Assembly: GCA_029858205.1 (NCBI GenBank)
Contig: JAOUFM010000003.1
Span: forward strand, 210,936-274,935
DNA: 64,000 nucleotides
Direction of reading: 5' to 3'
Source: Deltaproteobacteria bacterium
Lineage (GTDB): Bacteria > Desulfobacterota > GWC2-55-46 > DRQE01
Part shown: in pieces, positions 10,971 through 27,026 of the stretch
How positions within the stretch are numbered: the first letter of the stretch is position 1
Layout of the letters: each line of letters begins with the position of its first letter
Program-made: the position numbers and the translations under genes
Notes under the pieces: generated by a model
Database searches by the model: none
The model's input: only the letters and a program-made list of their open reading frames with translations
What the model was told of the DNA's origin: nothing

Positions 10971-12257
10971 CTATACCACCTTTTGAGGCTGAGTCCAGAC
11001 ATAGGGCAATTTTACGGCACCAAGGCTATGGTATGACCAATTAACATTGGAATACCCCTTTGACGATGGCTCTATAGCGAAATCTAGCGCCGGCCTTATG
11101 CCGTCCTGCAAAGACGGCGCGTACATACTGAGCCAGGTAAAATATCTGCCGGGGCGCAAATAGTTCGGGGATATATCGAGCCCAAACTTGTACATTCCAG
11201 GCGCCATGACAGCCTCCATCACATCTGACAGAACCGCAAACACCTTTGCGTCCATCGAATCAAGTACCCCGAAATGTATTTCCAAAAGATCCAACTGTTG
11301 CCTCACTTCAACATAGATATCTATATGTATCGATTCTTCCTCTTCATACTGTGACCGCGCTTTGCCAATCTTATCCGAGCAAATGGCTTTTACAAAAACC
11401 GCCTTGGCGGTTTTGGGATTTACTTTATGCAAAGGTCTTTCCAAAAGCCTTAAATCATATACGCCATCCTCCCTCGCAGACAGGCCGCAGCCGGAAGGAT
11501 CTTTAACATAATGTTCTATCACTTCATGCGTTACCCCGGACATAGTCACAACGCCTTTAGTAAGCTCTATGCATCTCGTCGTGAGAGATGCTACCGCGCT
11601 CATGTTATGGCTTACAAAAAGGACGGTCCGCCCCCCCTCTGCCACCTCACCCATCTTACCAAGACATTTCTTCTGAAATCCGGCATCACCGACGGCAAGA
11701 ACTTCATCAACTACCAGTATCTCCGGCTCAAGATGCGCAGCAACTGCAAAGGCCAAACGCACATACATGCCGCTCGAATACCGTTTAACAGGCGTATCGA
11801 GAAACTTCTCTATCTCCGAGAACGCCACTATCTCGTCAAACTTGCTTTTTATCTCAGCCCTCGTCATTCCAAGAAGAGCGCCGTTTAAAAGTATATTTTC
11901 CCTTCCGGTAAGTTCCGGATGAAAACCCGTGCCGACCTCGAGAAGGCTCGCAACGCGCCCCTTCATCGTAATACGGCCGGACGTGGGCTCAGTTATCCTC
12001 GAAAGTATTTTCAAGAGCGTACTTTTACCTGCGCCGTTACGGCCTATAATACCTACAACCTCTCCTTCCTTTACGTTGAAGGAAACGTCCTTCAACGCCC
12101 AAACGATATTATCTTCTTCCTTTTTAGGAGCGCCAAAATTCTTGAACGGCGCAGTCAACGTCTGTACTATTTCATCGCGAAGGCTACCGTAAGCCATCCT
12201 TTCGCCGATCCTGTATTGTTTAGATATATTTCTTACTTCTATTATATTCTTAGACAT
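10971..12257 (-). CDS. wzt: polysaccharide ABC exporter ATP-binding protein (Wzt/TagH type) with about 180-aa C-terminal extension
   Basis: Walker A is GRNGAGKSTLLKIL, the ABC signature is YSSGMYVRLAF, and Walker B is ILVVDEVLAVGD. Residues from about 250 to 428 lie beyond the ATPase core. Confidence 0.9.
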   Translation of the reverse strand: MSKNIIEVRNISKQYRIGERMAYGSLRDEIVQTLTAPFKNFGAPKKEEDNIVWALKDVSFNVKEGEVVGIIGRNGAGKSTLLKILSRITEPTSGRITMKGRVASLLEVGTGFHPELTGRENILLNGALLGMTRAEIKSKFDEIVAFSEIEKFLDTPVKRYSSGMYVRLAFAVAAHLEPEILVVDEVLAVGDAGFQKKCLGKMGEVAEGGRTVLFVSHNMSAVASLTTRCIELTKGVVTMSGVTHEVIEHYVKDPSGCGLSAREDGVYDLRLLERPLHKVNPKTAKAVFVKAICSDKIGKARSQYEEEESIHIDIYVEVRQQLDLLEIHFGVLDSMDAKVFAVLSDVMEAVMAPGMYKFGLDISPNYLRPGRYFTWLSMYAPSLQDGIRPALDFAIEPSSKGYSNVNWSYHSLGAVKLPYVWTQPQKVV

Positions 12258-12264
12258 ACTCGTA

Positions 12265-13089
12265 TCAGACCACGTCCGAGAAATAACGCTCTACGCGGCG
12301 GAAATAAAAAACACCGCTTACAAAAACCGCAAAACCGCATACGGCAGACACAGCCAGAGATGCCCAAGGAATATCCACATGACCCAGAACAGCAGCCCGG
12401 ATTGCCTCTATGACACCGGACATCGGGTTTAGCATCAATATCATCTTATACTTTTCCGATAAAAGACCTGCCGGATAAATAACCGGGGTCACGAACATCC
12501 ATATCTGCACGAAAAACGGTATTGCATACTGAATATCCCTGTACCTTACGTTTAGCGCCGAAAACCAAAGCCCGAACCCAACAGCATTCATCATGACGAA
12601 AGACATCAATATCGGCACAAGAAAAATTCCCAAACCAGGCTTTACGCCGTAATAAACCATTATCGCGCCAAACACGAGCGCCGAGATAAAGAAATCCAGA
12701 AACACGGACACGGCGGAACTCGCAGGCATGATGATTCGCGGAAAATATATTTTTGTTATAAGATTTTTTTCAGAAACGACACTGCTGGTAGATTGCGTAA
12801 GCACTGCAGCAAAGTACTGCCACGGTAAAAGACCGGCATACACGAAAACCGGGTACGGTACGCCCTCCGATGGCATCCCCGCGAACCTGCCGAAAATTAC
12901 CGAAAAAACGACCATGGTCAGCACCGGCTGCAGCACGGCCCACACTATGCCGATAACAGCCTGCTTATACTTTACCTTTACATCCCTCCACGCAAGAAAA
13001 TACAAAAGCTCCCTGTACTTCCATATCTCGCGAAGGTCGACCGGTATAAACCCTTTTCTGGGTTCTATGACAGTAACATTATCAGCCAT
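12265..13089 (-). CDS. wzm: polysaccharide ABC-2 type exporter permease (Wzm type)
   Basis: 274 aa and multi-pass hydrophobic. The N-terminal LREIWKYRELLYFLAWRDVKVKYKQAVIGIVWAVLQP is typical of ABC-2 Wzm/TagG. It lies adjacent to wzt. Confidence 0.85.
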   Translation of the reverse strand: MADNVTVIEPRKGFIPVDLREIWKYRELLYFLAWRDVKVKYKQAVIGIVWAVLQPVLTMVVFSVIFGRFAGMPSEGVPYPVFVYAGLLPWQYFAAVLTQSTSSVVSEKNLITKIYFPRIIMPASSAVSVFLDFFISALVFGAIMVYYGVKPGLGIFLVPILMSFVMMNAVGFGLWFSALNVRYRDIQYAIPFFVQIWMFVTPVIYPAGLLSEKYKMILMLNPMSGVIEAIRAAVLGHVDIPWASLAVSAVCGFAVFVSGVFYFRRVERYFSDVV

Positions 13090-13092
13090 AAA

Positions 13093-14034
<942 letters not shown>

Positions 14035-15171
14035 TTAACCTACCGTCAATTTACTATCTGTCCAGGCTATGCCTTTTTTGGCGAGTATCTTTCTGCCTTC
14101 ACCCTTTGAATCGACACCTGCGGCCTCAAGGTCATAATCCACCATTATCTTGACCAGATCCTTGAATGTTATCTCAGGGGTCCACCCGAGTTCCTTTTTG
14201 GCCTTTCTTATGTCAGCCTTAAGCACATCGACCTCTGTAGGCCTTAAATAACGGGGATCGAGCTCTATGATTGCGTATCCCGGCTTTAGACCGTCGGCAA
14301 TGCCTTTTTTAAGAGACTTTATTACTCCCTTTTCCTTAATGCCCTTGCCCTTCCATTCGATCTCTATTCCCGCATATTCGAATGCATGGTTCAAAAAGTC
14401 CCTTACCGACCTTGTATCGCCCGTGCCTATTACAAAATCCCCGGGCTTATCGTGCTGAAGGATGCGCCACTGGCATTCGACGTATTCGGGCGCAAACCCC
14501 CAGTCCCTTTTTGCGTCGAGGTTGCCAAGGTAAAGCTTTTTTTGCTTACCCGCGACTATCGCGGCAAGGGCGCGCGTGATTTTGCGCGTAACAAAAGTCT
14601 CGCCCCTTCTTGGAGATTCGTGGTTAAAAAGTATCCCGTTCGAGGCGAACATGCGGTAGCCTTCGCGGTAGTTTACGGTCATCCAGTACGAGTACACCTT
14701 TGCCGCGGCGTAAGGGCTCTGCGGCCGAAATACCGTTTTCTCGCTTTGCGGAGGAAGCGCGCTCCCAAACATTTCACTCGAAGACGCCTGATAAAAACGC
14801 GCAGGCACTCCGCTTCTCCTGACTGCCTCGAGAAGGCGTGTTGTGCCAAGTCCGGTGATGTCGCCTGTGTATTCGGGTATATCGAAACTCACGCGAACGT
14901 GGCTCTGGGCGCCGAGATGATAAATCTCGTTTGGCGCAATATTGTAAACCAGATTAACGAGCTGTCCCGAGTCCGAAAGGTCTCCGTAGTGAAGTAAAAG
15001 TTTTGTCCCCGGCAGGTGACGGTCCTTATATATATGATCTATCCTGTGGGTATTGAAGGTACTGGCGCGCCGTATTATGCCGTGCACCTCGTAGCCCTTG
15101 CTTAAGAGAAGTTCGGCAAGGTAGCTTCCGTCCTGCCCTGTTATTCCCGTTATAAGCGCGCGCTTTCCCAT
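14035..15171 (-). CDS. gmd: GDP-mannose 4,6-dehydratase
   Basis: [46 protein letters not shown] and [21 protein letters not shown] are highly characteristic of Gmd. Confidence 0.95.
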
Positions 15172-15172
15172 T

Positions 15173-15874
15173 CTATTCTCCCGGATTGTTTTTTATTATA
15201 GTAGGCCTCTCGGCCCAGCGTTTCTTATCGACAAAAACGGTGTTAACGAACGTATCGCCGCAGACGATATATCCATTACGCTCCATCACCTTGAATATTT
15301 CATCGTTCTTCCTGTTCTCGTTATAATAAACGGTCTCTATGCAAAACACCTCGGGTCTGTACTTCTTGAAATCGAAACTCTCGAGTATCTCGACCTCGAG
15401 GCCTTCGACGTCAATGGTTACAAGGTTCGGGCATTTATCGAAATATTTTTCGATTATCCCGTTTATGGGCACGACATTTATCTTCAACACCTTCGGCTCG
15501 CCGCTGCCAATACTCTTGTAACGCTCCATGGTTTCCCTGCTGCAGGTGCTAAGTGTTGTGCCGCCCGGTATAACGTAAAAATCAATGACCCCTGCCTTTG
15601 CCGCAACGCCGACATTAAGATTAACGTCCCTTCTTCTCTTAAAACCGAACTTGGCGAAAAGCTCCGGGTCTGGCTCCACGTTCACGCCCTTGCATCCGTT
15701 CTTGTAAAAATAGTACGTGTTACTGAACTTAACGGGGTCGTGCGCGCCGACATCAAGATAAGTGGGTTTACGTATCTTTAACGCCCTCAAGATGAAATCC
15801 GCAAGCACGTCCTCGCCTGCCTGGGCGTAAGATCTCTTATAATCTCTTTTGAATATATTCCTTATGAATTTCAT
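15173..15874 (-). CDS. FkbM-family methyltransferase
   Basis: Carries the motifs [19 protein letters not shown] and [14 protein letters not shown]. Confidence 0.75.
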
Positions 15875-15891
15875 CTCATTGAACTCCGGCC

Positions 15892-17217
15892 CTACGCCGG
15901 CACCACCTTTTTGCTTTTAAATTTCCTTGCCGCGCCTCTTGCATCCACCACTATCTTGCTGTTAACAGCTATCATCTTATAGTCGTAACACGTATGGTCC
16001 GTGGATATGACGACGCAATCGTATTTCTTTAACGCCGCGGGGGTAAGTTTCACGGACTTAAGTTCGATTGCATGGTGCCGCATCCTCGGCATCTTCGGCA
16101 CATAGGGGTCGTTATAATCCACCTTTGCGCCAAGCCCCTTTAGCATTTCTATGATATGCACGGAAGGAGACTCCCTCATGTCATCCACATCTTTTTTATA
16201 CGCCGCTCCGAGCACAAGGATACGCGAGCCTTTGACGGACTTGCCTTCCTTGTTTAGCGCTGTACCGACCTTCCCAATGACATAAGAAGGCATGGAGGTG
16301 TTTATCTCCCCGGCAAGCTCTATAAAGCGCGTTGCGAACTCGTACTCCTTCGCCTTCCACGTAAGGTAAAACGGGTCTATGGGAATGCAATGCCCGCCAA
16401 GGCCCGGGCCCGGATAAAAGGCCTGGAACCCGAAGGGCTTGGTCTTCGAGGCATCGATGACCTCCCATATGTCAATGCCCATCTTATCGGTAAGCATCTT
16501 AAGCTCGTTTACAAGCGCTATATTGACGCAGCGATATATATTCTCGAGAAGCTTTGTCATCTCTGCCGCGCGCGTGGTAGAGACCTCTACCACCTTATCT
16601 ATAATCTGCGAGTACAACAGACTGCCCGCTGCCAGACAATCCTTTGTAACACCGCCAACCACCTTGGGAATCGTCTTTGTCGAAAAATCCTTTCTCCCCG
16701 GATCTTCCCTTTCGGGCGAGAATACAAGGAAGTAATCTTTGCCGACACGAAGCCCTGTTTTTTCGAATTCCGTAAGAAGTATTTCGTCGGTTGTTCCGGG
16801 ATAAGTAGTGGACTCAAGAGAAACAAGCTGGCCTATTCTAAGGCGCTCCACTATCTCCTTTGTCGTACCGACAACATAGCTCATATCCGGCTCGCGCATC
16901 TTACCCAGCGGCGTAGGCACGCATATGATGACCGCATCCGGCTCCTTAAGCCTGTTCATGTCAGCGGTCGCGGCAAACTTCTTTCCCTTGACATGTTTTG
17001 CGATATCCCCTGCGGCTATGTGCTTTATGTAAGACCTTCCGGCATTGAGCGCCTTTACTTTGGACGAGTCAACATCGAACCCGAGCACCCTGAAGCCTTC
17101 GTCGCAGAACCTGAGTACCAGCGGCAACCCGACATAACCAAGCCCGATAACGCCTATGAGCGCGCTTCGTTTTTCTATTTTTTCAAGCAGTTTTTCTTTT
17201 ACGATATTTTTCGCCAT
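15892..17217 (-). CDS. nucleotide-sugar dehydrogenase (UDP-GlcNAc/UDP-ManNAc 6-dehydrogenase-like, WbpA/WecC/TviB group)
   Basis: N-terminal Rossmann [13 protein letters not shown], a catalytic region with [13 protein letters not shown], and a length of 441 aa. Confidence 0.85.
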
Positions 17218-17253
17218 AGCACCTCATTTAAAGCCGTTTCTCAGGATTTTTTC

Positions 17254-17868
17254 TCAAACCTGTCCTTTTTTGCTGATGTCTATGATCCGTGCCTGAACAA
17301 CCCCTGCCTCTATCAATGCCTTCGAAAGTTCCGCGCTTCTATAAAACGAAGTTATTACTATGGCCTCGGCTGCGCCGTCCCTGAGCTTTTCAATACCGAC
17401 AACCGGCATATCGAAAAACTTTTCGGTTCTTTCGATATCCGAAATGCAGACAAGCTCCAACCCGGCCTCCTTTAAAGACAGATACGCTATCTCGGCAACC
17501 TCATCTACGCCGCAGAAAGCGACTCTGCTTATGCCAAGCTCCTTCAACCTTGCAAACAGTTCAGCGAAATCCGTCCTCGCAACCCTGTAGAGGTTGGTAA
17601 AATTCCTCAGATGTTCGTAGGTGAGACGGGTCTTTTCAAGAAAACCATTTGGCGTAAGATAATATTTGTAGCGCTTTGCGGGAATACCGGAGACTGTTAT
17701 GTAACCTTTTGAAATGAGATTCTTTATGTAGGAATTTATGAGTCCCAGCGCAATACCGAGGTTTTTGCTTATTTCACGCTGGGTTAGGTCGCCGTTTCGC
17801 GATATCTCGTCAAGCACGAGAAGCGAACGGTACCCATCCATATGGCCGTTTTTATCCTCGCTGTTCAT
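17254..17868 (-). CDS. winged-helix (MarR-like) transcriptional regulator with C-terminal Rossmann-like domain; first gene of the glycan cluster
   Basis: LVLDEISRNGDLTQREISKNLGIALGLINSYIKNLISKGYITV is a wHTH segment. The start is uncertain: the track ORF begins at 17919, and I prefer ATG 17868 (MNSEDK). Confidence 0.55.
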   Translation of the reverse strand: MNSEDKNGHMDGYRSLLVLDEISRNGDLTQREISKNLGIALGLINSYIKNLISKGYITVSGIPAKRYKYYLTPNGFLEKTRLTYEHLRNFTNLYRVARTDFAELFARLKELGISRVAFCGVDEVAEIAYLSLKEAGLELVCISDIERTEKFFDMPVVGIEKLRDGAAEAIVITSFYRSAELSKALIEAGVVQARIIDISKKGQV

Positions 17869-18050
17869 ACTATGAACATACCATTTAATCAGGCATTTTG
17901 TCAAGTAAAACGCGTTCATGCAATGAACTGGCCGCGCGCAAAAAATTAGTAATTTACATTTGCCGGGGTTTTATTGTATGGTATATTACTTAAAATTCCC
18001 CGTGCTGTTTTATTAAAAAATATTCCAACTTCGCTATCTGAAAAGTAAAT

Positions 18051-18080
18051 TTGGCCATGCCAGTCTTTTTATGCTACAAT
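18051..18080 (+). promoter_or_regulatory. putative sigma-70 promoter for the five-gene cassette
   Basis: TTGGCC (18051-18056), an 18-nt spacer, then TACAAT (18075-18080), 22 nt upstream of ATG 18103. It lies inside a 183-nt AT-rich divergent intergenic region. Confidence 0.3.
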
Positions 18081-18102
18081 AAAAGATACGGGTATATCCA
18101 AC

Positions 18103-20238
18103 ATGAATGCCAGAGATTTTGAAAAAGAGATAAAAATCCACATCGAAGCGCGCTACCCCATTTTGTGGCTCGTATCGTTCGAAGAGCGCCGGGTCGAGCG
18201 CATCGTCGAAAACCTCTGCAATACCAACGGGTTCAAGTTCTGGACATGGTCCGTGTCAAAAGGGCTCTACGGTAGCGACAAAAAAAAGAAAGAGCCCGTT
18301 GGCAGGGAAAAAATCCTTACCTCCATTGAGGAAAAGATAGTAAAGAACGAGGAAATCAATAACTTCTTCCTTTTAAAGGACATTGCCGGGTATTTCCAAT
18401 CCCACGAGTTCCTAAGAAAGTTTCGCGACATCCCGGGCACCATCGAGGACTATCGCTCGCTTAACACCGTCTGCATCCTCTCGCCAACACTTAGCGAGAT
18501 TCCGCCGGAGCTCGAAGAAGACATCGTGGTAATCGAGCTTAGCCTGCCCGAGTACGACGAAATCGAGGAGATGGTAAACACGAACTTTTCCAAATACATC
18601 CCCGCGTCGTGGCATTCGTCTACGAGGTCGGTTCTCTACAAATCGCTACAGGGCCTTTCTCTAGATAACATCAAAAGGGTCGTAAGAAAGGCAATCAGCC
18701 TGAATAGAGGCGTGCTGAACGAAGAATGCATCAAGTACATACAGGACGAGAAGCAGCAAATCATAAAAAAGCAGCAGATACTCGATTACTACCCCTACAG
18801 GGAAACTATCGACCACATCGGCGGCCTCGATGAAATAAAAAAATGGTTCGTCGAGAGAGAGCATGTCTTCCGTTTAAGCAAGGGCAAAATCGAAACTCTC
18901 GGCCTTGACGTTCCAAAAGGCCTCATGCTAATTGGCGTTCCGGGCTCCGGGAAAAGCCTCTGCTGCAAGGCCCTTGCCGGCATCTGGAACCTTCCGCTTC
19001 TAAGAATGGACGTAGGCCGTCTCTTTGGCTCGACAGTCGGAGAGTCCGAGAAAAATATTCGTAAGGCCATACAGCTTGCAGAGGCGGTAAGCCCCTGCAT
19101 AATGTGGATCGACGAGATAGACAAGGCATTCGGCGGAATATCCGGTTTCCAGGGGGATTCGGGCACGCAGCTAAGGGTGTTTGGCACCTTCATCACATGG
19201 CTGCAGGAAAAGGACAAACCCGTCTTTGTCATAGCAACTGCCAACGACCCGAAAAACCTTCCTCCCGAGCTATGGAGAAAAGGCCGCTACGACGAAGTGT
19301 TCTTCGTCGATCTTCCAAGCGCCGAGGAAAGAGACGAAATATTCAAGATACACCTCGAAAGAAGAGGACAAAAACCGTCGAACTTCCGCTTAAAGGAACT
19401 CTCGCAGAACTCGCAGGGCTACACGGGCGCCGAGATAGAGCAGGCCATAAAGGACGCGGTCGTTGCCACATTCAACACTCTGCACGAGGGAAAAGAAGCA
19501 AAAGAGGCCGACGCAATAATAGACGGCACCTTAACCCTCTCACTCGACACGGCAACGCTTCTCGAAGCGATACGGCACATAACGCCGCTCTCGGTTCTGA
19601 AAAAAGAGGAGATCGAGGCGCTTCGCGAATGGAGCCAGCAAAGGGCGCGGCCCGCATCGAAGTCTCTCTTCATGCAGCGCGCAGAGATGCTCTCTGACGC
19701 GGAAAAGCGCACTATCGCCATACACGAGGCCGGACATATAATAATGATGTGGCATCACTTCAATGGCACGCCGGTCTTCGTGAGCATAGATAACTACAAG
19801 GACACCTCTGCATTCACCGGCAAGAGCGAAAGCCTCGTAAACACACTTACCAAGCGCGACCTGGAAAAGGAAATCGGCGTGATGCTTGGCGGCATGGTGG
19901 CCGAAGACGAGGTCGGCGGAGCGGACTCGAAAACTGTTGGCGCCTCGCACGACCTTAGCGACGCAACGGCCAAGGCAAGAAGAATGGTCGTGGAATACGG
20001 CTTTGGCGACATAATGAAGAACACGAGCCTTGTAGAGCTCCAGGAATACGCCATGATGTCCGGGAAAGACATTCTCGAGGACATACAGAAGATAATCCAC
20101 GGCGCAAAGGAAGAGACCGAGTCCGTCATTTCGAAGAACAAAGCGCTTCTCGAAAAGCTCGCGGACAAGCTCGTGGCGGAGATACTCGTAAACGGCGAGG
20201 GATTAAGGAATTTCCTTACGCAGCACAATCTGGAATAA
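18103..20238 (+). CDS. soluble AAA+ ATPase (Ycf46-like N-terminus) fused to C-terminal FtsH-type M41 zinc-metalloprotease domain
   Basis: Walker A GVPGSGKS (aa 278-285), Walker B CIMWIDEID, second region of homology ATANDPKNLPPELWRKGRYDEVFFVDLP, and Zn motif HEAGH (aa 541-545). FtsH-like LGGMVAEDEVGG and GASHDLSDATAKARRMVVEYGFG follow. The N-terminal 250 aa are hydrophilic (ARYPILWLVSFEERRVERIV) with no TM helix. Confidence 0.8.
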   Translation: MNARDFEKEIKIHIEARYPILWLVSFEERRVERIVENLCNTNGFKFWTWSVSKGLYGSDKKKKEPVGREKILTSIEEKIVKNEEINNFFLLKDIAGYFQSHEFLRKFRDIPGTIEDYRSLNTVCILSPTLSEIPPELEEDIVVIELSLPEYDEIEEMVNTNFSKYIPASWHSSTRSVLYKSLQGLSLDNIKRVVRKAISLNRGVLNEECIKYIQDEKQQIIKKQQILDYYPYRETIDHIGGLDEIKKWFVEREHVFRLSKGKIETLGLDVPKGLMLIGVPGSGKSLCCKALAGIWNLPLLRMDVGRLFGSTVGESEKNIRKAIQLAEAVSPCIMWIDEIDKAFGGISGFQGDSGTQLRVFGTFITWLQEKDKPVFVIATANDPKNLPPELWRKGRYDEVFFVDLPSAEERDEIFKIHLERRGQKPSNFRLKELSQNSQGYTGAEIEQAIKDAVVATFNTLHEGKEAKEADAIIDGTLTLSLDTATLLEAIRHITPLSVLKKEEIEALREWSQQRARPASKSLFMQRAEMLSDAEKRTIAIHEAGHIIMMWHHFNGTPVFVSIDNYKDTSAFTGKSESLVNTLTKRDLEKEIGVMLGGMVAEDEVGGADSKTVGASHDLSDATAKARRMVVEYGFGDIMKNTSLVELQEYAMMSGKDILEDIQKIIHGAKEETESVISKNKALLEKLADKLVAEILVNGEGLRNFLTQHNLE

Positions 20239-20248
20239 GGGCCCCGCT

Positions 20249-20587
20249 ATGTCGTTTTTCACAAAGCTCAACACCGAACTCAAAAACAAACAGTACGTGC
20301 TCGCTGCCATAGCCGCCCTTAAGCAGACAGGCGAGATAAAGAACTACGCCATAAACGAAAAGAAGGAAAGCGTCGAAATAAACCGCGCCGGCGACATTAT
20401 ACAGGTAGTAAAAACAAAGACCGGCGAGTACGAACTGCAGGGAGACGCAAGAGTGGTAAGCGCCTTCTCGAGCAGGCTAAAGCAGCTCTACGCGTACGAG
20501 GCAATCAAAGACAACATGCCGCTGGACTTCGAGATAGCCGAAGAGATAGAAACCGCCGGAGAGATCCGCATCGTGCTTAAAGGCTAA
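20249..20587 (+). CDS. DUF1257-like small protein (Ycf35-like)
   Basis: 112 aa. The N-terminus MSFFTKLNTELKNKQYVLAAIAALKQTG resembles the MSHF(S/T)xIKTxl...L..AL..LG opening I associate with DUF1257. It starts 10 nt after the AAA+ stop. Confidence 0.5.
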   Translation: MSFFTKLNTELKNKQYVLAAIAALKQTGEIKNYAINEKKESVEINRAGDIIQVVKTKTGEYELQGDARVVSAFSSRLKQLYAYEAIKDNMPLDFEIAEEIETAGEIRIVLKG

Positions 20588-20589
20588 AT

Positions 20590-20775
20590 ATGGGTAAAGA
20601 GATAAAAATAAAGATAACACCCGACGGCAAGGTCGAGATAGATTCGACCGTGTTCAAGGACTGTAAAGAGGTGGCCGAACACCTATCGAAGGTCATAGGA
20701 AAGGTCGAGGTCTTCACCATAAAAGAAGAACACGAGCGCGAAGAAAAACTTCGCATAAAAAAAGGCGACAAATAA
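20590..20775 (+). CDS. DUF2997-like small protein
   Basis: 61 aa. IKIKITPDGKVEIDSTVFKDCKEVAEHLSKVIG resembles the I.I..DG.V......G..C......L...LG pattern of DUF2997 as I recall it. It has a Lys/Glu-rich tail and a 2-nt gap from the previous gene. Confidence 0.45.
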   Translation: MGKEIKIKITPDGKVEIDSTVFKDCKEVAEHLSKVIGKVEVFTIKEEHEREEKLRIKKGDK

Positions 20776-20779
20776 GCAC

Positions 20780-21364
20780 ATGGCATCGTCGATATTCATA
20801 GACACGCACGCGATAATCGAGAGGTCGCGTGTAAACGGCCCAGGACAGAGGCTGGTGGTCTTTTTCCAGGGCTGTCACAGGAACTGTCCTGGCTGCTTCA
20901 ATCCGGCAACGCACTCAATCGGCACTGGCGTCAAATACGGCATACGGGAGATATTCGCGCGTTTCCTCTCTAAAAACGTAAGCGGCTTAACTGTTAGCGG
21001 AGGTGAGCCGTTTCTGCAAAGCGCGGCGCTCTGTGAACTGCTTAAAACCGCAAAACGCGAACACGGCCTTACGACCGCCGTGTACACGGGATTCACGATA
21101 GAGGAAATACGTTCATCAACGGAGCTTAGCCCTGCGCTCGAGCACATAGACGTGCTCATAGACGGGGCGTTCGACGAAAACAACACAGAAAGGACAACTC
21201 TTGCAAGAGGTTCCACAAACCAGCGCCTTCACTTTCTCTCCGGCGTTTATTCGATAGATGATTTTATTTTGCCAGGCAAAGCGGAGATAATAATCAACAA
21301 GGACGGTTCGGTGGTAGAGACCGGATTTTCGAAGCCGGCGGGAATAAACTCCATCCTCTTGTAA
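20780..21364 (+). CDS. NrdG/PflA-like radical-SAM activating enzyme (4Fe-4S single-cluster domain)
   Basis: SRVNGPGQRLVVFFQGCHRNCPGCFNPATH carries the CX3CX2C cluster motif (C32, C36, C39) in the NrdG-type context, and VSGGEPF is the SAM-binding GGE motif. 194 aa. Confidence 0.75.
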   Translation: MASSIFIDTHAIIERSRVNGPGQRLVVFFQGCHRNCPGCFNPATHSIGTGVKYGIREIFARFLSKNVSGLTVSGGEPFLQSAALCELLKTAKREHGLTTAVYTGFTIEEIRSSTELSPALEHIDVLIDGAFDENNTERTTLARGSTNQRLHFLSGVYSIDDFILPGKAEIIINKDGSVVETGFSKPAGINSILL

Positions 21365-21377
21365 AACGACCCACACC

Positions 21378-24161
21378 ATGACGATAGAGAACTTCTTCAG
21401 GGACAATTCCGGCATAGCGCGCACAAGCGCAGTTGAGCAGCGCGACGCGGCGCTAAAATACCTGCGCTCGCTGCCAGAGTCTAGCGACAGGGCCGAGGAC
21501 TTCAAATCGGCGTACGCGTACATACGAAACATCAGCGACGCCGAAGAAATGCGAAACGCACTCATCGAGCTTGCCATCACGATGCCAAAGCACGGCCCGT
21601 GCATGGACCTGTTTAAAGAAGTGTTCCCCGGCGCCATCAACTCCACAGACGCCATACCCGAGCCCATACACCGCAAATCAACGCTTACGCGCCTTGTAGA
21701 CTGCGTGCCCGACAAACCGGAGTACGCCGAGGCATACGCGCGCGTCGTGGAAAAATACATCGAGGCCGCAGACAAGATAGACGACCGCTTTGCGCGGCGC
21801 TACGCGCTTGCGGAAATTGCATCGAGACTCAAACACAGGGACGAATACGAAGCCCTCATGCTCCATGCCATGAAGGTGAGCCTCGGGTTTGCCGGCCTTC
21901 CGGGCTTTAGGCAATACTCGCTTCCCGAGATAGCAAGGGAACTTCCGAAAAGCTGCGACGTGGAGGTCTACAGAAACCACACATTCCTCGGGCTTGCGTT
22001 CTCGCTGCCGCACAGGGGCGAGTTCCTCGAACTCTTCAAAAAGGCCCTGACCACGGCCATCGAGTCAACGGAGCACATCGTTGAGCCGTATTACAAGAAA
22101 TACGCCCTTCTCTTCATGGCCAACAGGCTGCCCGAGACAGCAGAGTTTTTACCGCTAAGAAAGAGCGCTTTCAGGGCCGCCCTTGCCTCGGTCGACACGC
22201 TCGCCGACAGCTTCGCCAGGCAGTACGGATATAACGAATTCCTAAAGGACGTGCCAAAGACGCGCGAATTCTCCGACATACTGCTCGATACGGTCGAGAA
22301 GAGCCTTCCGTTCTTTTCTCTAAGAAGCCAGATGTCGGACTACGAGCCCATAGAGATACTCGACCGGATACTGATCGTCGCGGACAAAAAAATATCGGAT
22401 TCGAAGAAAAAACATTACACCCGCTTCCATTACGCCGATTTTTTCCTGAAACAGCTGAACCTGATAGCCGATAACTTAAACGATGTGCGCCTTCTGGAAA
22501 TTCTAAGGCCCTACACGCACGTATGGGTAAGGCCAAAAACTTTCAGGGACTCGATACGCAAGGTGTTCGACAAGGTCTCGTCCTTAAAAGGCAGATACCA
22601 CGGCGCCGAAGTAGAGCGTCCACTTTATGTCAGCGAGGCATGCCTCGGCATAGACAAACGAAGCCGCACGGCATCCGTTATGGCGGATACGCGCGAAGGC
22701 TACGCGCTCTCGATAGACCTTGGCGCCACCAATACCGTTGTAATGCTTAAAAAACCCGGGGCATTCCCGGAATTCGTCAACATAGAAGGATTATCCGAAA
22801 CCATCGGAAGCGTTGCCTTCATAAGCACGGCAGTAGACAAGAACAACGACTTGATAGGCGCTGCGGCGCCGGCCCAGTCGCGCTCGAACAACATAAAAAA
22901 ACTGTTCATGGAAGGCGACGAAGAGGGGCGCGAGCTCATCGAGAAGTTTTTCCGCATCCTGTACTCCAGAATAAAGGAATCTGTCGAGGTGCCCGGGTTT
23001 TTCAAGAAACTTTCCGGCAGGATTTTCGATACCGTTTCCGTGACAGTGCCGGTCGGGTATACGGATTACAGCGGCGAACTTACCAGAATCATCGAAAAAT
23101 ACGCGGGCAGCGCGCGCATAAAGCTCGTGGAAGAGCCGCTTGCTGCGGCGATAGGCTATAACGTGGCGGAGAAAAAGGAAAAATTCGTCCTTGTTCTCGA
23201 CTTTGGCGGCTGCACGCTCGACCCGATGCTTTTAAGGCTCTCTACCGACATGACACACGTCATAGCAAAGCCCGACAGATCCAAGATGCTTGGCGGGCGC
23301 GACATAGACCGCTGGGTGGCCGAGTACGTGAACGAAAAGCATAACCTTAGGACCAACCCTTCGGGGCACGAGGCCCTGACTGCGGCAGAGGCGCTGAAAA
23401 TAGAACTTAGCGCCAAAAACTCGGCGAAGTTCGTGTTTGGCGGCCGCGATATCGCGGAACTTACGCGCATAGAGTTCGAGGAGCTTCTCTCGCGCAGAGG
23501 GTTCTACAGCGACATAGACAGGGAACTTTCGAACGTGCTAAAAAAGGCTTCGAAGCTCGGCGTTTATAAATCCATGATAGAGGCCGTCATCATAACCGGG
23601 GGCTCTTCGCAGATACCGTCGTTCAAGGAAAAGATATCTCACTACTTCCACAACCTGGCCGTGCAAAACGCGATATACGACCACAGCCCGCTGTCGTCGG
23701 TCGCAAGGGGCGCGGCCCTCTACGGCACGGCCTCGGTGCTGGACCGCCACCTGGCCATGGCGTACGCAATAAAGCACATTGCAAGGGAAGAGGAAAAACA
23801 GTTTGCCTACGAAATCGTACTCGAAAAGGGCGAATCGCTTCCGTTCAAAAAGACCTTGCGCTTTACTCCTGCCATGACGCTCGGTGGACAGAAGGAAATA
23901 TTTCTCGAACTCTTCGAGGTGCCCGATTCCCTTATCGTACGGCGCTGGATATCCGAGGGCGGCATGGAGTTCATAAAGCAAATACTTAAGCACACGCCCG
24001 ACGAACTCGATCTGAGGGCTTTCAAGACCGTCACGCTTTCATTCGACGCTCCTATAGAAGGAAGCACAGACATCACATTTATAGTGGAAGAGAACGGACG
24101 ATTGAAGGTGCGCTACGAAAAAGACGGCCGCGAACTTGCAACCGACATACACCTTCAGTAA
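21378..24161 (+). CDS. 927-aa protein: N-terminal alpha-helical repeat region (about 440 aa) plus C-terminal Hsp70/DnaK-like actin-fold ATPase with beta-rich tail
   Basis: Hsp70 motifs are SIDLGATNTVV (phosphate-1, from about aa 445), EEPLAAAIGYN, VLVLDFGGCTLD (phosphate-2) and VIITGGSSQIPSF (adenosine). The N-terminus has recurring segments such as FARRYALAEIASRL, YYKKYALLFMANRLPETAEF, FARQYGYNEFLKDVPKTREF and YSLPEIARELPKS. Confidence 0.75.
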   Translation: MTIENFFRDNSGIARTSAVEQRDAALKYLRSLPESSDRAEDFKSAYAYIRNISDAEEMRNALIELAITMPKHGPCMDLFKEVFPGAINSTDAIPEPIHRKSTLTRLVDCVPDKPEYAEAYARVVEKYIEAADKIDDRFARRYALAEIASRLKHRDEYEALMLHAMKVSLGFAGLPGFRQYSLPEIARELPKSCDVEVYRNHTFLGLAFSLPHRGEFLELFKKALTTAIESTEHIVEPYYKKYALLFMANRLPETAEFLPLRKSAFRAALASVDTLADSFARQYGYNEFLKDVPKTREFSDILLDTVEKSLPFFSLRSQMSDYEPIEILDRILIVADKKISDSKKKHYTRFHYADFFLKQLNLIADNLNDVRLLEILRPYTHVWVRPKTFRDSIRKVFDKVSSLKGRYHGAEVERPLYVSEACLGIDKRSRTASVMADTREGYALSIDLGATNTVVMLKKPGAFPEFVNIEGLSETIGSVAFISTAVDKNNDLIGAAAPAQSRSNNIKKLFMEGDEEGRELIEKFFRILYSRIKESVEVPGFFKKLSGRIFDTVSVTVPVGYTDYSGELTRIIEKYAGSARIKLVEEPLAAAIGYNVAEKKEKFVLVLDFGGCTLDPMLLRLSTDMTHVIAKPDRSKMLGGRDIDRWVAEYVNEKHNLRTNPSGHEALTAAEALKIELSAKNSAKFVFGGRDIAELTRIEFEELLSRRGFYSDIDRELSNVLKKASKLGVYKSMIEAVIITGGSSQIPSFKEKISHYFHNLAVQNAIYDHSPLSSVARGAALYGTASVLDRHLAMAYAIKHIAREEEKQFAYEIVLEKGESLPFKKTLRFTPAMTLGGQKEIFLELFEVPDSLIVRRWISEGGMEFIKQILKHTPDELDLRAFKTVTLSFDAPIEGSTDITFIVEENGRLKVRYEKDGRELATDIHLQ

Positions 24162-24168
24162 AACGCGC

Positions 24169-24654
24169 CTATGCGTGGGATTTAAGGATTTTCTCTACGA
24201 TGTTCGTGGTGGAGAGCCCTTTTACGAGCCGTATCCTGGCAACGCGCCCGCCGTTTGCCATAACAACGTCCTCGCCGACTATCTGCCCTTTTTTCCAATC
24301 AGCGCCCTTTACAAGGATATCCGGCTTTACCGCGGTTATGAGCTTAATGGGTGTTGAATCGCCAAAGAGCACGACATAATCGACAAATCCGAGCGCCGAG
24401 AGCACCTCTGCGCGCTCTTTCTCCGGAACTATGGGGCGTTTGTGGCCTTTGATGCCCCTTACGGAAGAATCGCTGTTTAGACCGATAACGAGCACATCGC
24501 CAAGCGATGCCGCCTTTTTAAGATACCTCACATGCCCGGCATGCAGGATATCGAAACAGCCGTTCGTGAAAACAACCTTTTTCCTCTTCGCCTTTTGCCT
24601 TTTCAGGCATGTAAGCAGTTTTTTAAGCCCTACGATCTCTCCCACGCCTCGCAC
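24169..24654 (-). CDS. hldC: D-glycero-beta-D-manno-heptose 1-phosphate adenylyltransferase (RfaE domain II type, stand-alone)
   Basis: VVFTNGCFDILHAGHVRYLKKAASLGDVLVIGLNSDSSV is the cytidylyltransferase-fold HxGH motif in the RfaE-II context. 161 aa. Confidence 0.85.
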   Translation of the reverse strand: MRGVGEIVGLKKLLTCLKRQKAKRKKVVFTNGCFDILHAGHVRYLKKAASLGDVLVIGLNSDSSVRGIKGHKRPIVPEKERAEVLSALGFVDYVVLFGDSTPIKLITAVKPDILVKGADWKKGQIVGEDVVMANGGRVARIRLVKGLSTTNIVEKILKSHA

Positions 24655-24684
24655 CGCGCAATGTTCGACATTCGTATAACGATA

Positions 24685-25431
24685 TCACAGTTTGACTGCC
24701 ATGGCAAACGTGGCAACATAGACCGCTGCCCCGGCCCTGGCAAGCACCTTTGAGCACTCGGCTATGGTCGCTCCGGTGGTACACACGTCGTCGATGAGAA
24801 GAACGCGCCTGTTCTTTACCGCGCCCTTGTCCCTGAGCGCAAAGGCGTCTTTCACGTTCGCACTCCGCTCGTTGTGCTCGAGCTCGACCTGCGGCCTGGT
24901 GTGCCTGATCCTTTCGAGATTGTCGTAAGAAAGGCGTGCGCCAAGCCTTTTCGAAACCTCGCGCGCTATAAGAAGCGACTGGTTAAAACCGCGCTCCCTT
25001 AGCCGTTTTAAATGAAGCGGCACGGGCATGACCGTATCGAAGCCGCCTTCGCCAAGACCTTTCGCAGCCAGAGACACCCACTTGGCCATCGGCCGCGCAA
25101 GCTCGGTCTTTTTATTGTACTTTAAATCGCGCACCGCCTCCGCAACATTGCCATCGTAGAAAAACGCACTGCGCATCGCCTCGAACCAGCGCTTTTCCGT
25201 AAGACATTCGCCGCAGCTACCCGGCGTTTCTATCGCTCCGGCAAAAGGCCTGCCGCATTTTACGCAGTGCGCAGCATCGGATATCTTCCTGATACTATCG
25301 AGACAGGCATTGCAAAGCCAGCTGTCCGAAGCTGTCTTGCCGCAAAAGCGGCAGAGGTTCGGGAAAAACACGTCCAGAAAAGGCAGCGCAAAAGTTTTCG
25401 CCCTTTTTCCAAGCTCCGTTGCCGTTATCAT
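24685..25431 (-). CDS. comF: ComF family protein (phosphoribosyltransferase domain with N-terminal Cys-rich zinc finger)
   Basis: N-terminal CRFCG...CNAC...CVKCGRP...CGEC cysteines, and the PRTase motif VLLIDDVCTTGATI. Confidence 0.8.
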   Translation of the reverse strand: MITATELGKRAKTFALPFLDVFFPNLCRFCGKTASDSWLCNACLDSIRKISDAAHCVKCGRPFAGAIETPGSCGECLTEKRWFEAMRSAFFYDGNVAEAVRDLKYNKKTELARPMAKWVSLAAKGLGEGGFDTVMPVPLHLKRLRERGFNQSLLIAREVSKRLGARLSYDNLERIRHTRPQVELEHNERSANVKDAFALRDKGAVKNRRVLLIDDVCTTGATIAECSKVLARAGAAVYVATFAMAVKL

Positions 25432-27026
25432 GCCAGGCCCCCTTTGGGCGCTGCAGGCAGCTTGACCGTGAACACCGAACCCTTGCCAGGCTTGCTATCT
25501 ACGAAGATATTGCCGCCGTGCTCCCTGACTATGCCCCTGCTAACGCTAAGGCCAAGGCCGGTGCCTACCCCAGGCTCTTTTGTCGTAAAGAACGGCTCGA
25601 AAAGCCTTGCCACCGTTCTCTCATCCATTCCCGTGCCCGTATCGCTGACACTTAATATGACATGACGTGAGTCAGGGCCGTCCTCGCACTCCGTTGCAAG
25701 CACAATCTCTCCGCCGCCAGGCATGGCGTCCCGCGCGTTGGCAACGAGATTTACGATTACCTGCTCGAGCCTGGTAGAATCGCCGATAACAGGCGGCAGC
25801 GTTCCTTTTTCAAACCTGACCTCTACACCGCTTTTCTTTAGTATCTCGCCAACGACTATGAACGCATCGTCGATAACGGCATTTAAGTCCACCTGTTTGT
25901 ACACGGGATTATCCTGACGCATGAACACGCGAAGATGCCCGACTACATTTTCCATCTTTCTTGCCGCAGAGTCTATTACTTTTAATTTTTCGAACACATC
26001 GGCGTCCATGCCTTCCTTTTTAAGAAGGTGCTGGGTAAGCCCGCTTACCACCGTAAGCGGCTGCCTTAGCTCGTGCGCGAGCACGGCAGACATCTCGCCA
26101 AGGGCCCTAAGCTTCGAGACCTGCGTCAGATGGTCCTGTGCCTGCTTGAGTTCGTTGTACGCGGCCTTCAAGTCCTTTTCTCCGTCATCGAGGATCTTTA
26201 CCATGCCAACAAGGCTGTCGACCACTTCCTCGTGCCTGCGCTCTCTTTGCTCAAGCTCCCTTTTTACCGCGCGCACCTCGCTACGTAACTCTTCGACCTT
26301 GCCCGTCTCCGTAAACACAATGACAAAACCGTCCCTTATGGTATCGAGTTTCATGGCAGCGGCCCGGATGCGTTTTTTTACTCCGCCGATTCTGGCTTCA
26401 ACGGTCATCGGGGAAGAACCAAGCACATCCATATCAACATCGCCCAAGACCTGCGCTATGTTTGGCCCCTTGGCCCCGGCATAAACGAGACCAAATGTAT
26501 CCAGAAACGTCTTGCCTGCATACAGAATGTTCCCCTTCGAATCAACGGCACAGACAAAAAAATCGCTCACAGACAAGGCCTTGCTTACTATCTCCACCTC
26601 TGCCTCCACGAGACCAACGGCCCTGCCAAGCATCGATACAAGCCCATCGTCTTTTCCGTGCTTTTTTGCCACTCCCGACATTTCAAGCCTGCTCCACTTC
26701 AATTCCAGCAAACTGCTTCTTTTAACGACCGCCGCTGCCCCGACAAACAACGTATCCAATATAGCCACTATCTTCTTCCAGAAAATAACGGAAAATACGA
26801 TACCGACCGCCAGGCCTACCAGGACAGAAAACCCAAAACTGACATATTGCGCCTGCTCCAGTATCTTTTCAGGCTCGACGGCGCCAAGTATATTCGAACT
26901 ATCCACATCCTCGACATAAAAAAGAAAAACAACCCTGGCGCCAAGGGCAATCAGCACAACGCCAAGCATTGCCGCCAGAATCGAAAGCGAAAGTTTTTTT
27001 CTTACATCCAAGAATTCTTTATGCAT
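25428..27026 (-). CDS. membrane sensor histidine kinase (2 TM, PAS-like, HisKA, HATPase_c)
   Basis: The H-box is LGEMSAVLAHELRQPLT. The N/G boxes are NLVANARDAM, DTGTGMD and GTGLGLSVSRGIV. It overlaps comF by 4 nt (ATGA). Confidence 0.85.
   Translation of the reverse strand: MHKEFLDVRKKLSLSILAAMLGVVLIALGARVVFLFYVEDVDSSNILGAVEPEKILEQAQYVSFGFSVLVGLAVGIVFSVIFWKKIVAILDTLFVGAAAVVKRSSLLELKWSRLEMSGVAKKHGKDDGLVSMLGRAVGLVEAEVEIVSKALSVSDFFVCAVDSKGNILYAGKTFLDTFGLVYAGAKGPNIAQVLGDVDMDVLGSSPMTVEARIGGVKKRIRAAAMKLDTIRDGFVIVFTETGKVEELRSEVRAVKRELEQRERRHEEVVDSLVGMVKILDDGEKDLKAAYNELKQAQDHLTQVSKLRALGEMSAVLAHELRQPLTVVSGLTQHLLKKEGMDADVFEKLKVIDSAARKMENVVGHLRVFMRQDNPVYKQVDLNAVIDDAFIVVGEILKKSGVEVRFEKGTLPPVIGDSTRLEQVIVNLVANARDAMPGGGEIVLATECEDGPDSRHVILSVSDTGTGMDERTVARLFEPFFTTKEPGVGTGLGLSVSRGIVREHGGNIFVDSKPGKGSVFTVKLPAAPKGGLA

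Follow-up and report, generated by a model that had tools for sequence, protein, structure and literature searches.

A DUF1257-DUF2997 gene pair within a five-gene AAA+/M41 protease cassette and its possible role as a cofactor module for protein-remodelling ATPases

A 64,000-nucleotide stretch of the genome of an uncultured Deltaproteobacteria bacterium (contig JAOUFM010000003.1), called the window hereafter, carries on its plus strand two small open reading frames (ORFs) lodged between the gene of an AAA+ ATPase fused to a protease and the gene of a radical S-adenosylmethionine (radical-SAM) enzyme. The first, which starts with ATG, encodes a protein of 112 amino acids (aa) beginning MSFFTKLNTELKNKQYVLAAIAALKQTG (20249-20587); the second, also with an ATG start, encodes a 61-aa protein that begins MGKEIKIKITPDGKVEIDSTVFKDCKEVAEHL and contains EEHEREEKLRIKKGDK further on (20590-20775). 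Here, we show that both are genuine genes under purifying selection. The 61-aa protein belongs to the DUF2997 family and the 112-aa protein is, as judged from profile-profile comparison, a divergent member of the DUF1257/Ycf35 family. We also show that, in the phyla, plasmids and phages sampled, the DUF1257-DUF2997 pair is a nearly constant unit, with AAA+, Hsp70, GrpE, WD40 and radical-SAM genes as interchangeable companions. We propose, with a probability of about 0.45, that the pair could act as a small heteromeric cofactor or adaptor module for protein-remodelling ATPases. Both families are already known, though uncharacterised; the new elements are an MSF subfamily of DUF1257 missed by Pfam, a short-loop form of DUF2997, and a fixed five-gene architecture that includes the fusion of the ATPase to an M41 peptidase.

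Conservation and family assignment of the two small genes

Searches with the 112-aa protein retrieved 53 cluster representatives at E ≤ 0.001, comprising the identical protein and relatives at 52-66% identity, and those with the 61-aa protein retrieved 45 at the same threshold, comprising the identical protein and relatives at 56-80% identity; nearly all of these proteins are 111-114 and 58-63 aa long, respectively. Among about 75 syntenic orthologues, lengths range from 110 to 113 aa for the first gene and from 58 to 64 aa for the second. The median pairwise ratio of non-synonymous to synonymous substitution rates (dN/dS) is 0.128 for the 112-aa gene and 0.146 for the 61-aa gene. Third codon positions differ from those of the window at 0.61 and 0.58, respectively, versus 0.22-0.30 at the first two positions, i.e. 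they are 2-2.5 times more variable.

The two ORFs had been singled out in a sequence-only reading of the window, whose coordinates, sequences and spacing were all confirmed: the gaps are 10 nucleotides (nt) between the genes of the 711-aa ATPase-protease and the 112-aa protein, 2 nt between the two small genes, and 4 nt between the genes of the 61-aa protein and the 194-aa radical-SAM enzyme. We examined whether the small ORFs might lack conservation beside the ATPase gene, an outcome that this reading had envisaged, and found that related genomes always have them adjoining it. Its use of the tight spacing as evidence for translational coupling did not withstand the comparison: in about 75 cassettes the two small genes lie anywhere between -1 and 294 nt apart (median 50 nt), and only 26 cassettes have a gap of 20 nt or less. 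A conserved translational coupling was thus rejected, the 2-nt gap being peculiar to the source genome. There, the two ORFs lie in different frames (junction TAA AT ATG), and an AAAGG Shine-Dalgarno-like site, read from the sequence (20579-20583, plus strand), sits in the last codons of the 112-aa gene, 6 nt ahead of the ATG of the 61-aa gene (TTA AAG GCT AAA TAT G). This placement is compatible with translational coupling in the source genome, at a spacing that is not kept in relatives.

The single window sequences fall below both Pfam cutoffs, and family assignment therefore required tests at the profile level. The 112-aa protein matches DUF1257 (PF06868) with an E-value of 0.016 and 15.8 bits, below the gathering cutoff of 22.2, and only 13 of 31 orthologues match this model at E ≤ 0.1 (best 0.0011). 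The family profile, searched against 1.84 billion sequences, reaches canonical DUF1257 proteins end to end at E-values from 2.4e-5 to 1e-3; six of the proteins reached were scanned and all were confirmed as PF06868 (4e-18 to 6e-26). Comparison with canonical DUF1257 by hhalign gives 99.2% and an E-value of 7.6e-20 over 111 columns, and the protein also matches the phage family phrog_20456 (8.3e-9). The resemblance to DUF1257 noted in the sequence-only reading thus stands at the profile level, and fails on the single-sequence Pfam threshold.

Essentially all Ycf35 proteins are reported to start with Met-Ser-His (PMC13060386), and S2 and H3 are invariant in the canonical DUF1257 set. The subfamily described here starts with MSF, not MSH: S2 and F3 are fixed in the 31-sequence alignment, and 71 of 74 genome orthologues begin with MSF[YF] or VSFY, the remaining three having Y for F. 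With the canonical His3 replaced by Phe, the 112-aa family has no conserved Cys or His; Q79, Y81, A82 and a PLDFE motif are invariant. AlphaFold2 predicts a beta-alpha-beta4-alpha-beta2 fold for this protein with a predicted local distance difference test (pLDDT) score of 86.7. This interaction-type fold most resembles KA1, BamC-N and the RnlA non-catalytic domain, at 4-12% identity. A sequence search of the PDB with the profiles of both small families returned nothing significant. We also considered a ubiquitin- or Pup-like C-terminal Gly on the 112-aa protein and rejected it, as Asp or Ser ends several members. On actinobacterial and Bacillus plasmids (loci L082, 6107-6532, and L083, 4694-5149), the DUF1257-like partner has a hydrophobic N-terminus (MSLELLLIPAG... 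and MSIEIVLIPLA...) instead of MSH and occurs together with a membrane protein whose C-terminus is of the helix-hairpin-helix type, an arrangement that looks like a membrane-anchored variant of the module.

For the 61-aa protein of the window, the match to DUF2997 (PF11211) has an E-value of 5.7e-4 and 20.1 bits, under the cutoff of 24.1. PF11211 is matched by 32 of 32 aligned orthologues (best E-value 6.5e-7), and for several of these a PF11211 hit was already precomputed. When built jointly with canonical DUF2997 members, a profile retrieves 1056 proteins, the top 120 of which are all stand-alone proteins of 58-75 aa without fused domains. The DUF2997 assignment made from the sequence holds, given the matches of all the orthologues and a stand-alone size, a hairpin Gly and a single Cys that fit the family. 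The single Cys and the charged tail that had been pointed out were also found: the protein has exactly one Cys, as does each of 75 orthologues, and its last 16 residues are predicted to be disordered. Invariance across the wider DUF2997 family is limited to the start Met, G13 and C25; in the subfamily alignment C25, G37 and K45 are invariant and I56 is kept in at least 90% of the sequences. The Cys loop of the subfamily is two residues shorter than the canonical GxxGxxC, the glycines of which are absent.

The AlphaFold2 model of the 61-aa protein alone reaches a pLDDT of 57, with residues 46-61 below 50, a confidence too low for its use in the fold search. The prediction is a beta-hairpin with Gly13 at its tip and Cys25 at the start of a helix, followed by the charged and disordered tail, in which a short R-I-K-I-like motif is conserved. 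A Pup-like tag was also tried as an explanation for this protein and rejected: the family has no conserved C-terminal Gly-Gly-Gln/Glu and its ends vary (KGDK, ETEG, DTER and others).

Genomic companions of the pair and a proposed cofactor role

In the window, the pair is preceded on the plus strand by the gene of a soluble AAA+ ATPase with a fused M41 zinc-peptidase (711 aa; 18103-20238) and followed by those of an NrdG/PflA-type radical-SAM enzyme (194 aa; 20780-21364) and of an Hsp70-like protein (927 aa; 21378-24161), the last two genes being separated by 13 nt. None of the five proteins has transmembrane segments. Using tblastn with the five window proteins on 78 related loci, we found one and the same gene order at every locus with a long enough contig: AAA+/M41 protease, DUF1257, DUF2997, NrdG-like radical-SAM enzyme and Hsp70-like protein. 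In a scan that took one genome per species (74 loci), the carriers of the cassette were 74 genomes of uncultured Thermodesulfobacteriota and Nitrospirota, many of them from groundwater. Identity to the window proteins is highest for the AAA+/M41 protein (~72%), reaches 60% and 58% for the 61-aa and 112-aa proteins, respectively, and is 53% for the radical-SAM enzyme and 41% for the Hsp70-like protein.

Both neighbours of the pair are what the sequence-only reading had taken them for, as seen from profile matches and motifs. The 711-aa protein matches the Pfam families AAA (6.3e-30) and Peptidase_M41 (1.8e-19) and is composed of a ~230-aa N-terminal domain, an AAA module with the Walker A motif GVPGSGKS at residue 278, and an M41 domain with HEAGH at residue 541; its maximum hydropathy of 1.17 corresponds to no transmembrane segment. 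Residues 3-526 match the phage family phrog_8638 at 6e-128, and residues 2-521 are 34-38% identical in tblastn to ~500-aa proteins encoded by 'AAA family ATPase' genes on cyanobacterial, Treponema, Paenarthrobacter and Bacillus plasmids. Further relatives are found in Rhizobium and Mycobacterium phages. Neither the N-terminal domain of the ATPase nor the N-terminal region of the Hsp70-like protein gave a significant match to PDB sequences.

The surroundings of these relatives led back to the same two small families, in counts that cover a few dozen loci and do not amount to a census. DUF2997/DUF1257 genes lie near the ATPase in four of five plasmid regions inspected, and likewise on chromosomes and in a Rhizobium phage. 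The neighbours of the ~500-aa ATPases include DUF2997, DUF1257 or divergent membrane-anchored versions of it, Fer4_12 radical-SAM, Hsp70, GrpE and WD40 genes, and also toxin-antitoxin, RloB, zeta-toxin and transposase genes. Starting from diverse DUF2997/DUF1257 proteins, we found the same parts in Moduliflexus, Verrucomicrobiota, cyanobacteria and others. DUF2997 stands immediately upstream of DUF1257 in 42 of the 43 DUF1257-carrying contigs of the IMG/VR viral collection, and almost all further loci from the wider sampling have the two adjacent or at most two genes apart. The companions vary: of 13 non-cyanophage loci, 8 have an AAA+ gene belonging to the same subfamily, 7 have Hsp70, 12 have one or the other and 4 have a radical-SAM gene, and on the IMG/VR contigs an AAA+ gene is found nearby in only one and Hsp70 in none.

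Two of the IMG/VR contigs were inspected for their content and are T4-like cyanophage. In two contigs of this type (L091, 8841-9384, and L122, 2010-2609), DUF2997 and DUF1257 overlap, with no AAA+ gene nearby and with clamp loader, DNA polymerase, hsp20 and baseplate genes among the neighbours; the two genes may form an auxiliary pair of these phages that has so far gone unrecognised. On the chromosome of Stanieria sp. NIES-3757 (L134, 1-10204), a second DUF2997 copy is located between a Tn7-like module with TnsA/TnsB/TniB-type domains and large UvrD and DEAD/MZB helicase genes, and a third (L135) follows GrpE, Hsp70 and DUF1257 genes; several paralogous modules are therefore possible in one genome.

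The sequence-only reading had offered adaptor, substrate or inhibitor of the cassette as roles for the small proteins, and we infer that a role of this kind, as cofactor or adaptor of remodelling ATPases, is the best reading of the present data. The 112-aa and 61-aa proteins would pair up as a heterodimer and bind the ATPase, the folded 112-aa protein serving as a protein-interaction platform and the 61-aa protein folding only upon binding. The flexible charged tail of the latter, with its short conserved hydrophobic motif, could be a tether or an engagement peptide. In the source operon, the pair would choose the substrates of the AAA+/M41 machine or control their entry into unfolding and degradation, in a way akin to adaptors of the SspB or ClpS type or to regulated pseudo-substrates, and Cys25, invariant throughout the family, would be a candidate switch of a redox or iron-sulfur-linked kind. 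On this view, the lineage-specific radical-SAM enzyme and Hsp70-like protein would be add-ons that do not account for the existence of the pair.

Divergence across the 43 complete cassettes bears on this cofactor reading. For the 112-aa protein, the strongest correlation is that with the AAA+/M41 protein (r = 0.84, partial correlation 0.57). The partial correlations of the 61-aa protein amount to 0.25 (ATPase), 0.20 (112-aa protein), 0.07 (radical-SAM enzyme) and close to zero (Hsp70-like protein). Several points weigh on the other side. The mirror-tree signal is confounded, the long and slowly evolving ATPase being the best proxy for the shared phylogeny, and a dedicated client or substrate would show the same gene adjacency as a cofactor. 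The cyanophage-like contigs and the loci L087, L089 and L135 have no AAA+ gene within 9 kb of the pair; the link to the ATPase is therefore frequent and not obligatory. The fold matches of the modelled 112-aa protein are generic alpha+beta sandwiches, and the proposed role of Cys25 comes from its conservation.

If the cofactor reading is true, the pair would represent a new, widespread kind of cofactor serving AAA+ and Hsp70 machines. The genes concerned are found in many places: those of Ycf35, Ycf46 and their DUF2997 companions are conserved in cyanobacteria, ycf35 and ycf46 are also present in many algal plastid genomes, and related genes occur in phages and plasmids. The cassette is the most explicit arrangement that we found, with the ATPase subfamily fused to a protease and the pair locked with an Hsp70-like ATPase and a protein-radical-type activase. 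It thus offers a soluble and compact system in which the long-open Ycf35/Ycf46/DUF2997 question becomes directly testable.

Neighbouring genes and alternative readings

The radical-SAM protein matches Fer4_12 at 6.6e-34 as well as Radical_SAM, with CHRNCPGC at residues 32-39, and the NrdG model TIGR02491 at 5.5e-34 and 117.3 bits, just under its cutoff of 126.1; PflA is matched at 1.5e-19, and the only solved radical-SAM relatives found by sequence are PFL-activating enzymes (1.1e-8). Its closest families (NrdG, PflA, PFL-AE) are thus all protein-glycine activases. This raises the alternative that the NrdG-like enzyme acts on the 61-aa protein, or on the pair, and introduces a radical or a modification at Gly13 or Cys25. 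DUF2997 would then be a radical carrier of the GrcA/YfiD kind in miniature, or else a modified peptide, handled in turn by the ATPases. The DUF2997 gene lies directly 5' of the radical-SAM gene in the window and at loci L079 and L088, and the invariant Gly, at the predicted tip of the hairpin, and Cys of DUF2997 recall the Gly/Cys fingers of glycyl-radical enzymes.

The glycyl-radical fingerprint reads [STIV]-x-R-[IVT]-[CSA]-G-Y-x-[GACV]. In its strict form it is absent in any frame of the 64-kb window, so that no conventional target of an activase is encoded nearby, a point in favour of this alternative. The loose form R[IVLT]xG[YFW] is absent from the five cassette proteins and from three family alignments, those of the small proteins included, and this counts against the small proteins themselves. 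Moreover, most contexts of the pair have no radical-SAM gene, among them oxygenic cyanobacteria and the cyanophage-like contigs, where a glycyl radical would be unstable; the divergence of the 61-aa protein shows next to no partial correlation with that of the radical-SAM enzyme, as given above; the hairpin itself comes from the low-confidence model; and the radical-SAM gene is joined most tightly to the Hsp70-like gene and not to DUF2997. The idea of the small proteins as the target of the neighbouring activase, voiced in the sequence-only reading, is thus weak, with no motif, a pair mostly found without the enzyme, and a divergence that tracks the ATPase; we regard it as unlikely.

The radical-SAM/Hsp70-like junction is the tightest of the cassette, with a median gap of 2 nt, 5 nt or less in 32 of 59 cases and many 4-nt overlaps of the ATGA type (13 nt in the window, 21361-21380). 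This suggests that the closest functional partner of the radical-SAM enzyme may be the Hsp70-like protein, and not the small proteins. Beyond its NrdG core, the enzyme carries a ~40-aa C-terminal extension conserved in 77 homologues, distant plasmid ones included (21233-21364, residues ~152-194); its pattern, GSxNQ..fLt.rY..D....PgkvEviIg.DG.v..TGF, is shared with the plasmid homologues of Treponema, Bacillus and Paenarthrobacter. We considered a homology between the hairpin of this extension (EviIg.DG.v..TGF) and the N-terminal hairpin of DUF2997 and rejected it: hhalign gives 82-87% over 15-16 columns, and the likeness is that of a generic beta-hairpin, because a hidden Markov model of the hairpin only ranked the radical-SAM enzyme no better than hundreds of background ORFs.

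The 927-aa protein consists of a poorly conserved ~440-aa helical N-terminal region and an Hsp70/actin-fold ATPase with intact nucleotide-binding motifs, and matches HSP70 at 4.7e-27 over residues 551-783. Conservation mapping of this protein highlighted only the ATPase motifs, which in 59 orthologues read ID+GA+NT (IDLGATNT in the window), DFGGxT and TGGSSxIPSF, the + positions being kept in 80-95%. At locus L003 (9223-11975) the Hsp70-like gene is split into two ORFs of 215 and 709 aa; the near-identical locus L004 (9223-12048), from another sample, has a single 941-aa ORF, and the split is probably a frameshift or an assembly error.

The best named match of the Hsp70-like protein is the iron-sulfur assembly chaperone HscA (1.1e-28, versus 1.3e-23 for DnaK). 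The difference between the two scores is small, and all the named matches are far under their cutoffs. In cyanobacteria, DUF2997, ycf35 and fed7 form a conserved cluster ('cluster g' of Cassier-Chauvat and Chauvat 2014), in which Fed7, a [4Fe-4S] ferredoxin, binds a DnaJ-like co-chaperone (PMC4284462). In red-algal plastid genomes, ycf35 and ycf46 share a habitat-tied pattern of presence and absence, and their losses are discussed in relation to iron availability (PMC5940233); in Synechococcus elongatus the ycf46 operon is a stress- and ppGpp-dependent module (bioRxiv 10.1101/2025.07.21.665879). In a full-text search covering 8 million articles, we found no biochemical function for DUF1257/Ycf35, DUF2997 or Ycf46.

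One may also read the pair as an iron-sulfur or redox accessory, with Cys25 as a ligand of a cluster, a persulfide or a disulfide: the pair would sense or service [4Fe-4S] proteins (Fed7, or the radical-SAM enzyme here), and an HscA-like Hsp70 with the unfoldase would recycle damaged holo-proteins. The recurrent [4Fe-4S] neighbour, Fed7 in cyanobacteria and Fer4_12 radical-SAM enzymes elsewhere, agrees with this, as do the HscA match of the Hsp70-like protein, the link of Fed7 to a co-chaperone, the iron-related losses in red algae and the single Cys invariant throughout DUF2997, all of it circumstantial. A lone Cys cannot, however, bind a cluster, and the 112-aa protein brings no conserved Cys or His to help it. 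In the 43 IMG/VR contigs, a fed7-like small ORF with CxxCxxC is never directly downstream of the pair and occurs anywhere in only three. We hold this reading to be improbable.

A last alternative concerns the genetic mobility of the module. The cassette could be a mobile anti-phage or anti-plasmid conflict system, with the pair as a toxin-antitoxin or sensor-effector couple in which the AAA+/M41 protein would remove the labile 61-aa partner with its disordered tail, thereby releasing or activating the 112-aa protein. The sizes and adjacency of the two genes resemble those of type II toxin-antitoxin pairs, the wider module occurs on plasmids, in phages and beside zeta-toxin, PIN, Doc, RloB, transposase and Tn7-like genes, and the AAA module partially matches the anti-phage ATPase IetA. 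In addition, two independent genomes have restriction-modification genes, identified from sequence motifs, inserted after DUF2997 and ahead of the radical-SAM gene: a Dam-like methyltransferase and an HNH-type protein at L041 (8768-10404), and a C5-cytosine methyltransferase, a putative restriction enzyme and a Vsr-like endonuclease at L066 (7622-10176). These insertions give a hint that the locus may behave as a defence-island site.

The small proteins themselves fit this picture poorly: PADLOC gives no match for either of them, and what it returns for the other proteins is limited to generic AAA or radical-SAM hits; no type II toxin-antitoxin family or fold is recognisable in either, and the predicted fold of the 112-aa protein is unlike any known toxin fold. 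The cyanophage-like contigs have the two genes in the opposite order, as does, according to the literature, the cyanobacterial chromosomal cluster, and the retention of ycf35 in cyanobacterial and plastid genomes (PMC4284462, PMC13060386) is unlike that of a toxin. The flanks of the cassette vary between genomes, as a mobile element would have it, but those inspected (the window and L001-L004) are made of housekeeping genes, and the GC content of the window reveals no compositional anomaly and no island signature. We therefore give a conflict role of the pair rather little credence.

Around the cassette, the gene identities were judged by eye from the translations, except for the regulator, which rests on profile matches. 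The upstream flank (12000-17919) contains sugar-nucleotide/exopolysaccharide genes, resembling those of a GDP-mannose dehydratase, an epimerase/reductase and a UDP-glucose dehydrogenase, together with a MarR/EPS-type regulator gene divergent from the operon (17254-17919, minus strand; HTH_24 at 2.5e-12, and TIGR04176 at 5.6e-17, under the cutoff of that model). The downstream flank (24169-27026) has a cytidylyltransferase-like gene, a ComF-like phosphoribosyltransferase gene and a histidine kinase gene. A consensus scan found six promoter-like matches on the plus strand, as patterns only: four sigma-70-like ones (17953-18080), with 9 of 12 positions matched, in the 183-nt gap 5' of the operon, and two within coding sequence. 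No terminator-like site is present on the plus strand within 18103-24161, and the small gaps, the upstream promoter-like sites and the lack of an internal terminator together lead us to read the five genes as one operon. There are no Rfam matches in 17000-25000 and no tRNA near the cassette, the only tRNA of the window being 35 kb off.

In a bolder reading, the operon would be an undescribed chaperone-and-protease system for conflict or stress, in which the radical-SAM enzyme marks DUF2997 at Gly13 or Cys25, and DUF1257 presents the marked DUF2997 to the Hsp70-like and AAA+/M41 machines. We consider this scheme very improbable; were it true, DUF2997 would be the smallest known radical-bearing protein cofactor, and a mechanistic frame would be at hand for the long-unexplained Ycf35 and Ycf46 of cyanobacteria and plastids.

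Comparison with known systems

Like IetAS, the cassette associates an ATPase with a protease, and its AAA module partially matches IetA (4.5e-32 in PADLOC, 3.6e-29 in NCBIfam). This match, however, covers the generic AAA core only, at 102 bits versus a cutoff of 510; the cassette has a fused M41 metallopeptidase in place of the IetS serine protease, and IetAS is without DUF1257 and DUF2997. We also compared the cassette with the Hsp70/GrpE and FtsH-ternary conflict systems of Kaur et al. 2020 (eLife, PMC7159879) and rejected them, the required GTPase or MoxR-vWA cores being absent here. With FtsH, the 711-aa protein shares the same pair of domains, an AAA module followed by Peptidase_M41 with HEXXH, but it has no transmembrane helices and another N-terminal domain. 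It was rejected as an FtsH orthologue, having no membrane anchor and reaching 173 bits with TIGR01241 versus a cutoff of 600.

The ATPase also resembles the ~500-aa Ycf46-type/COG0464 ATPases (phrog_8638), with which the window protein shares the N-terminal domain and the AAA module at the 34-38% identity given above, and which do not have its C-terminal M41 metallopeptidase domain; any orthology with plastid or cyanobacterial Ycf46 itself would rest on the generic source label 'SpoVK/Ycf46/Vps4' carried by relatives. The adjacent 194-aa enzyme calls to mind the NrdG-NrdD, PflA-PflB and PflA-GrcA/YfiD pairs, being of the NrdG/PflA type, and a small protein beside an activase recalls GrcA. The differences are that the fingerprint is absent here, that the enzyme has the extra conserved C-terminal extension, and that the small proteins are widespread without the enzyme.

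SspB and ClpS are small proteins encoded with or near an unfoldase, made of a folded body and a flexible tail with a short docking motif. The architecture inferred for the 61-aa protein resembles theirs, as a likeness of layout and not of sequence or fold.

The nearest counterpart of the pair is the cyanobacterial DUF2997-ycf35-fed7 cluster, together with plastid ycf35 (PMC4284462). The gene order is reversed here, with DUF1257 first; the DUF1257 protein is of the divergent MSF type, below the Pfam threshold, and the Cys loop of DUF2997 is two residues shorter; a radical-SAM enzyme takes the place of the ferredoxin Fed7, and the hosts are non-photosynthetic uncultured bacteria. In both cases the pair has a [4Fe-4S] protein as neighbour, and in both the same two families stand side by side, with similar small sizes and the invariant Cys of DUF2997.

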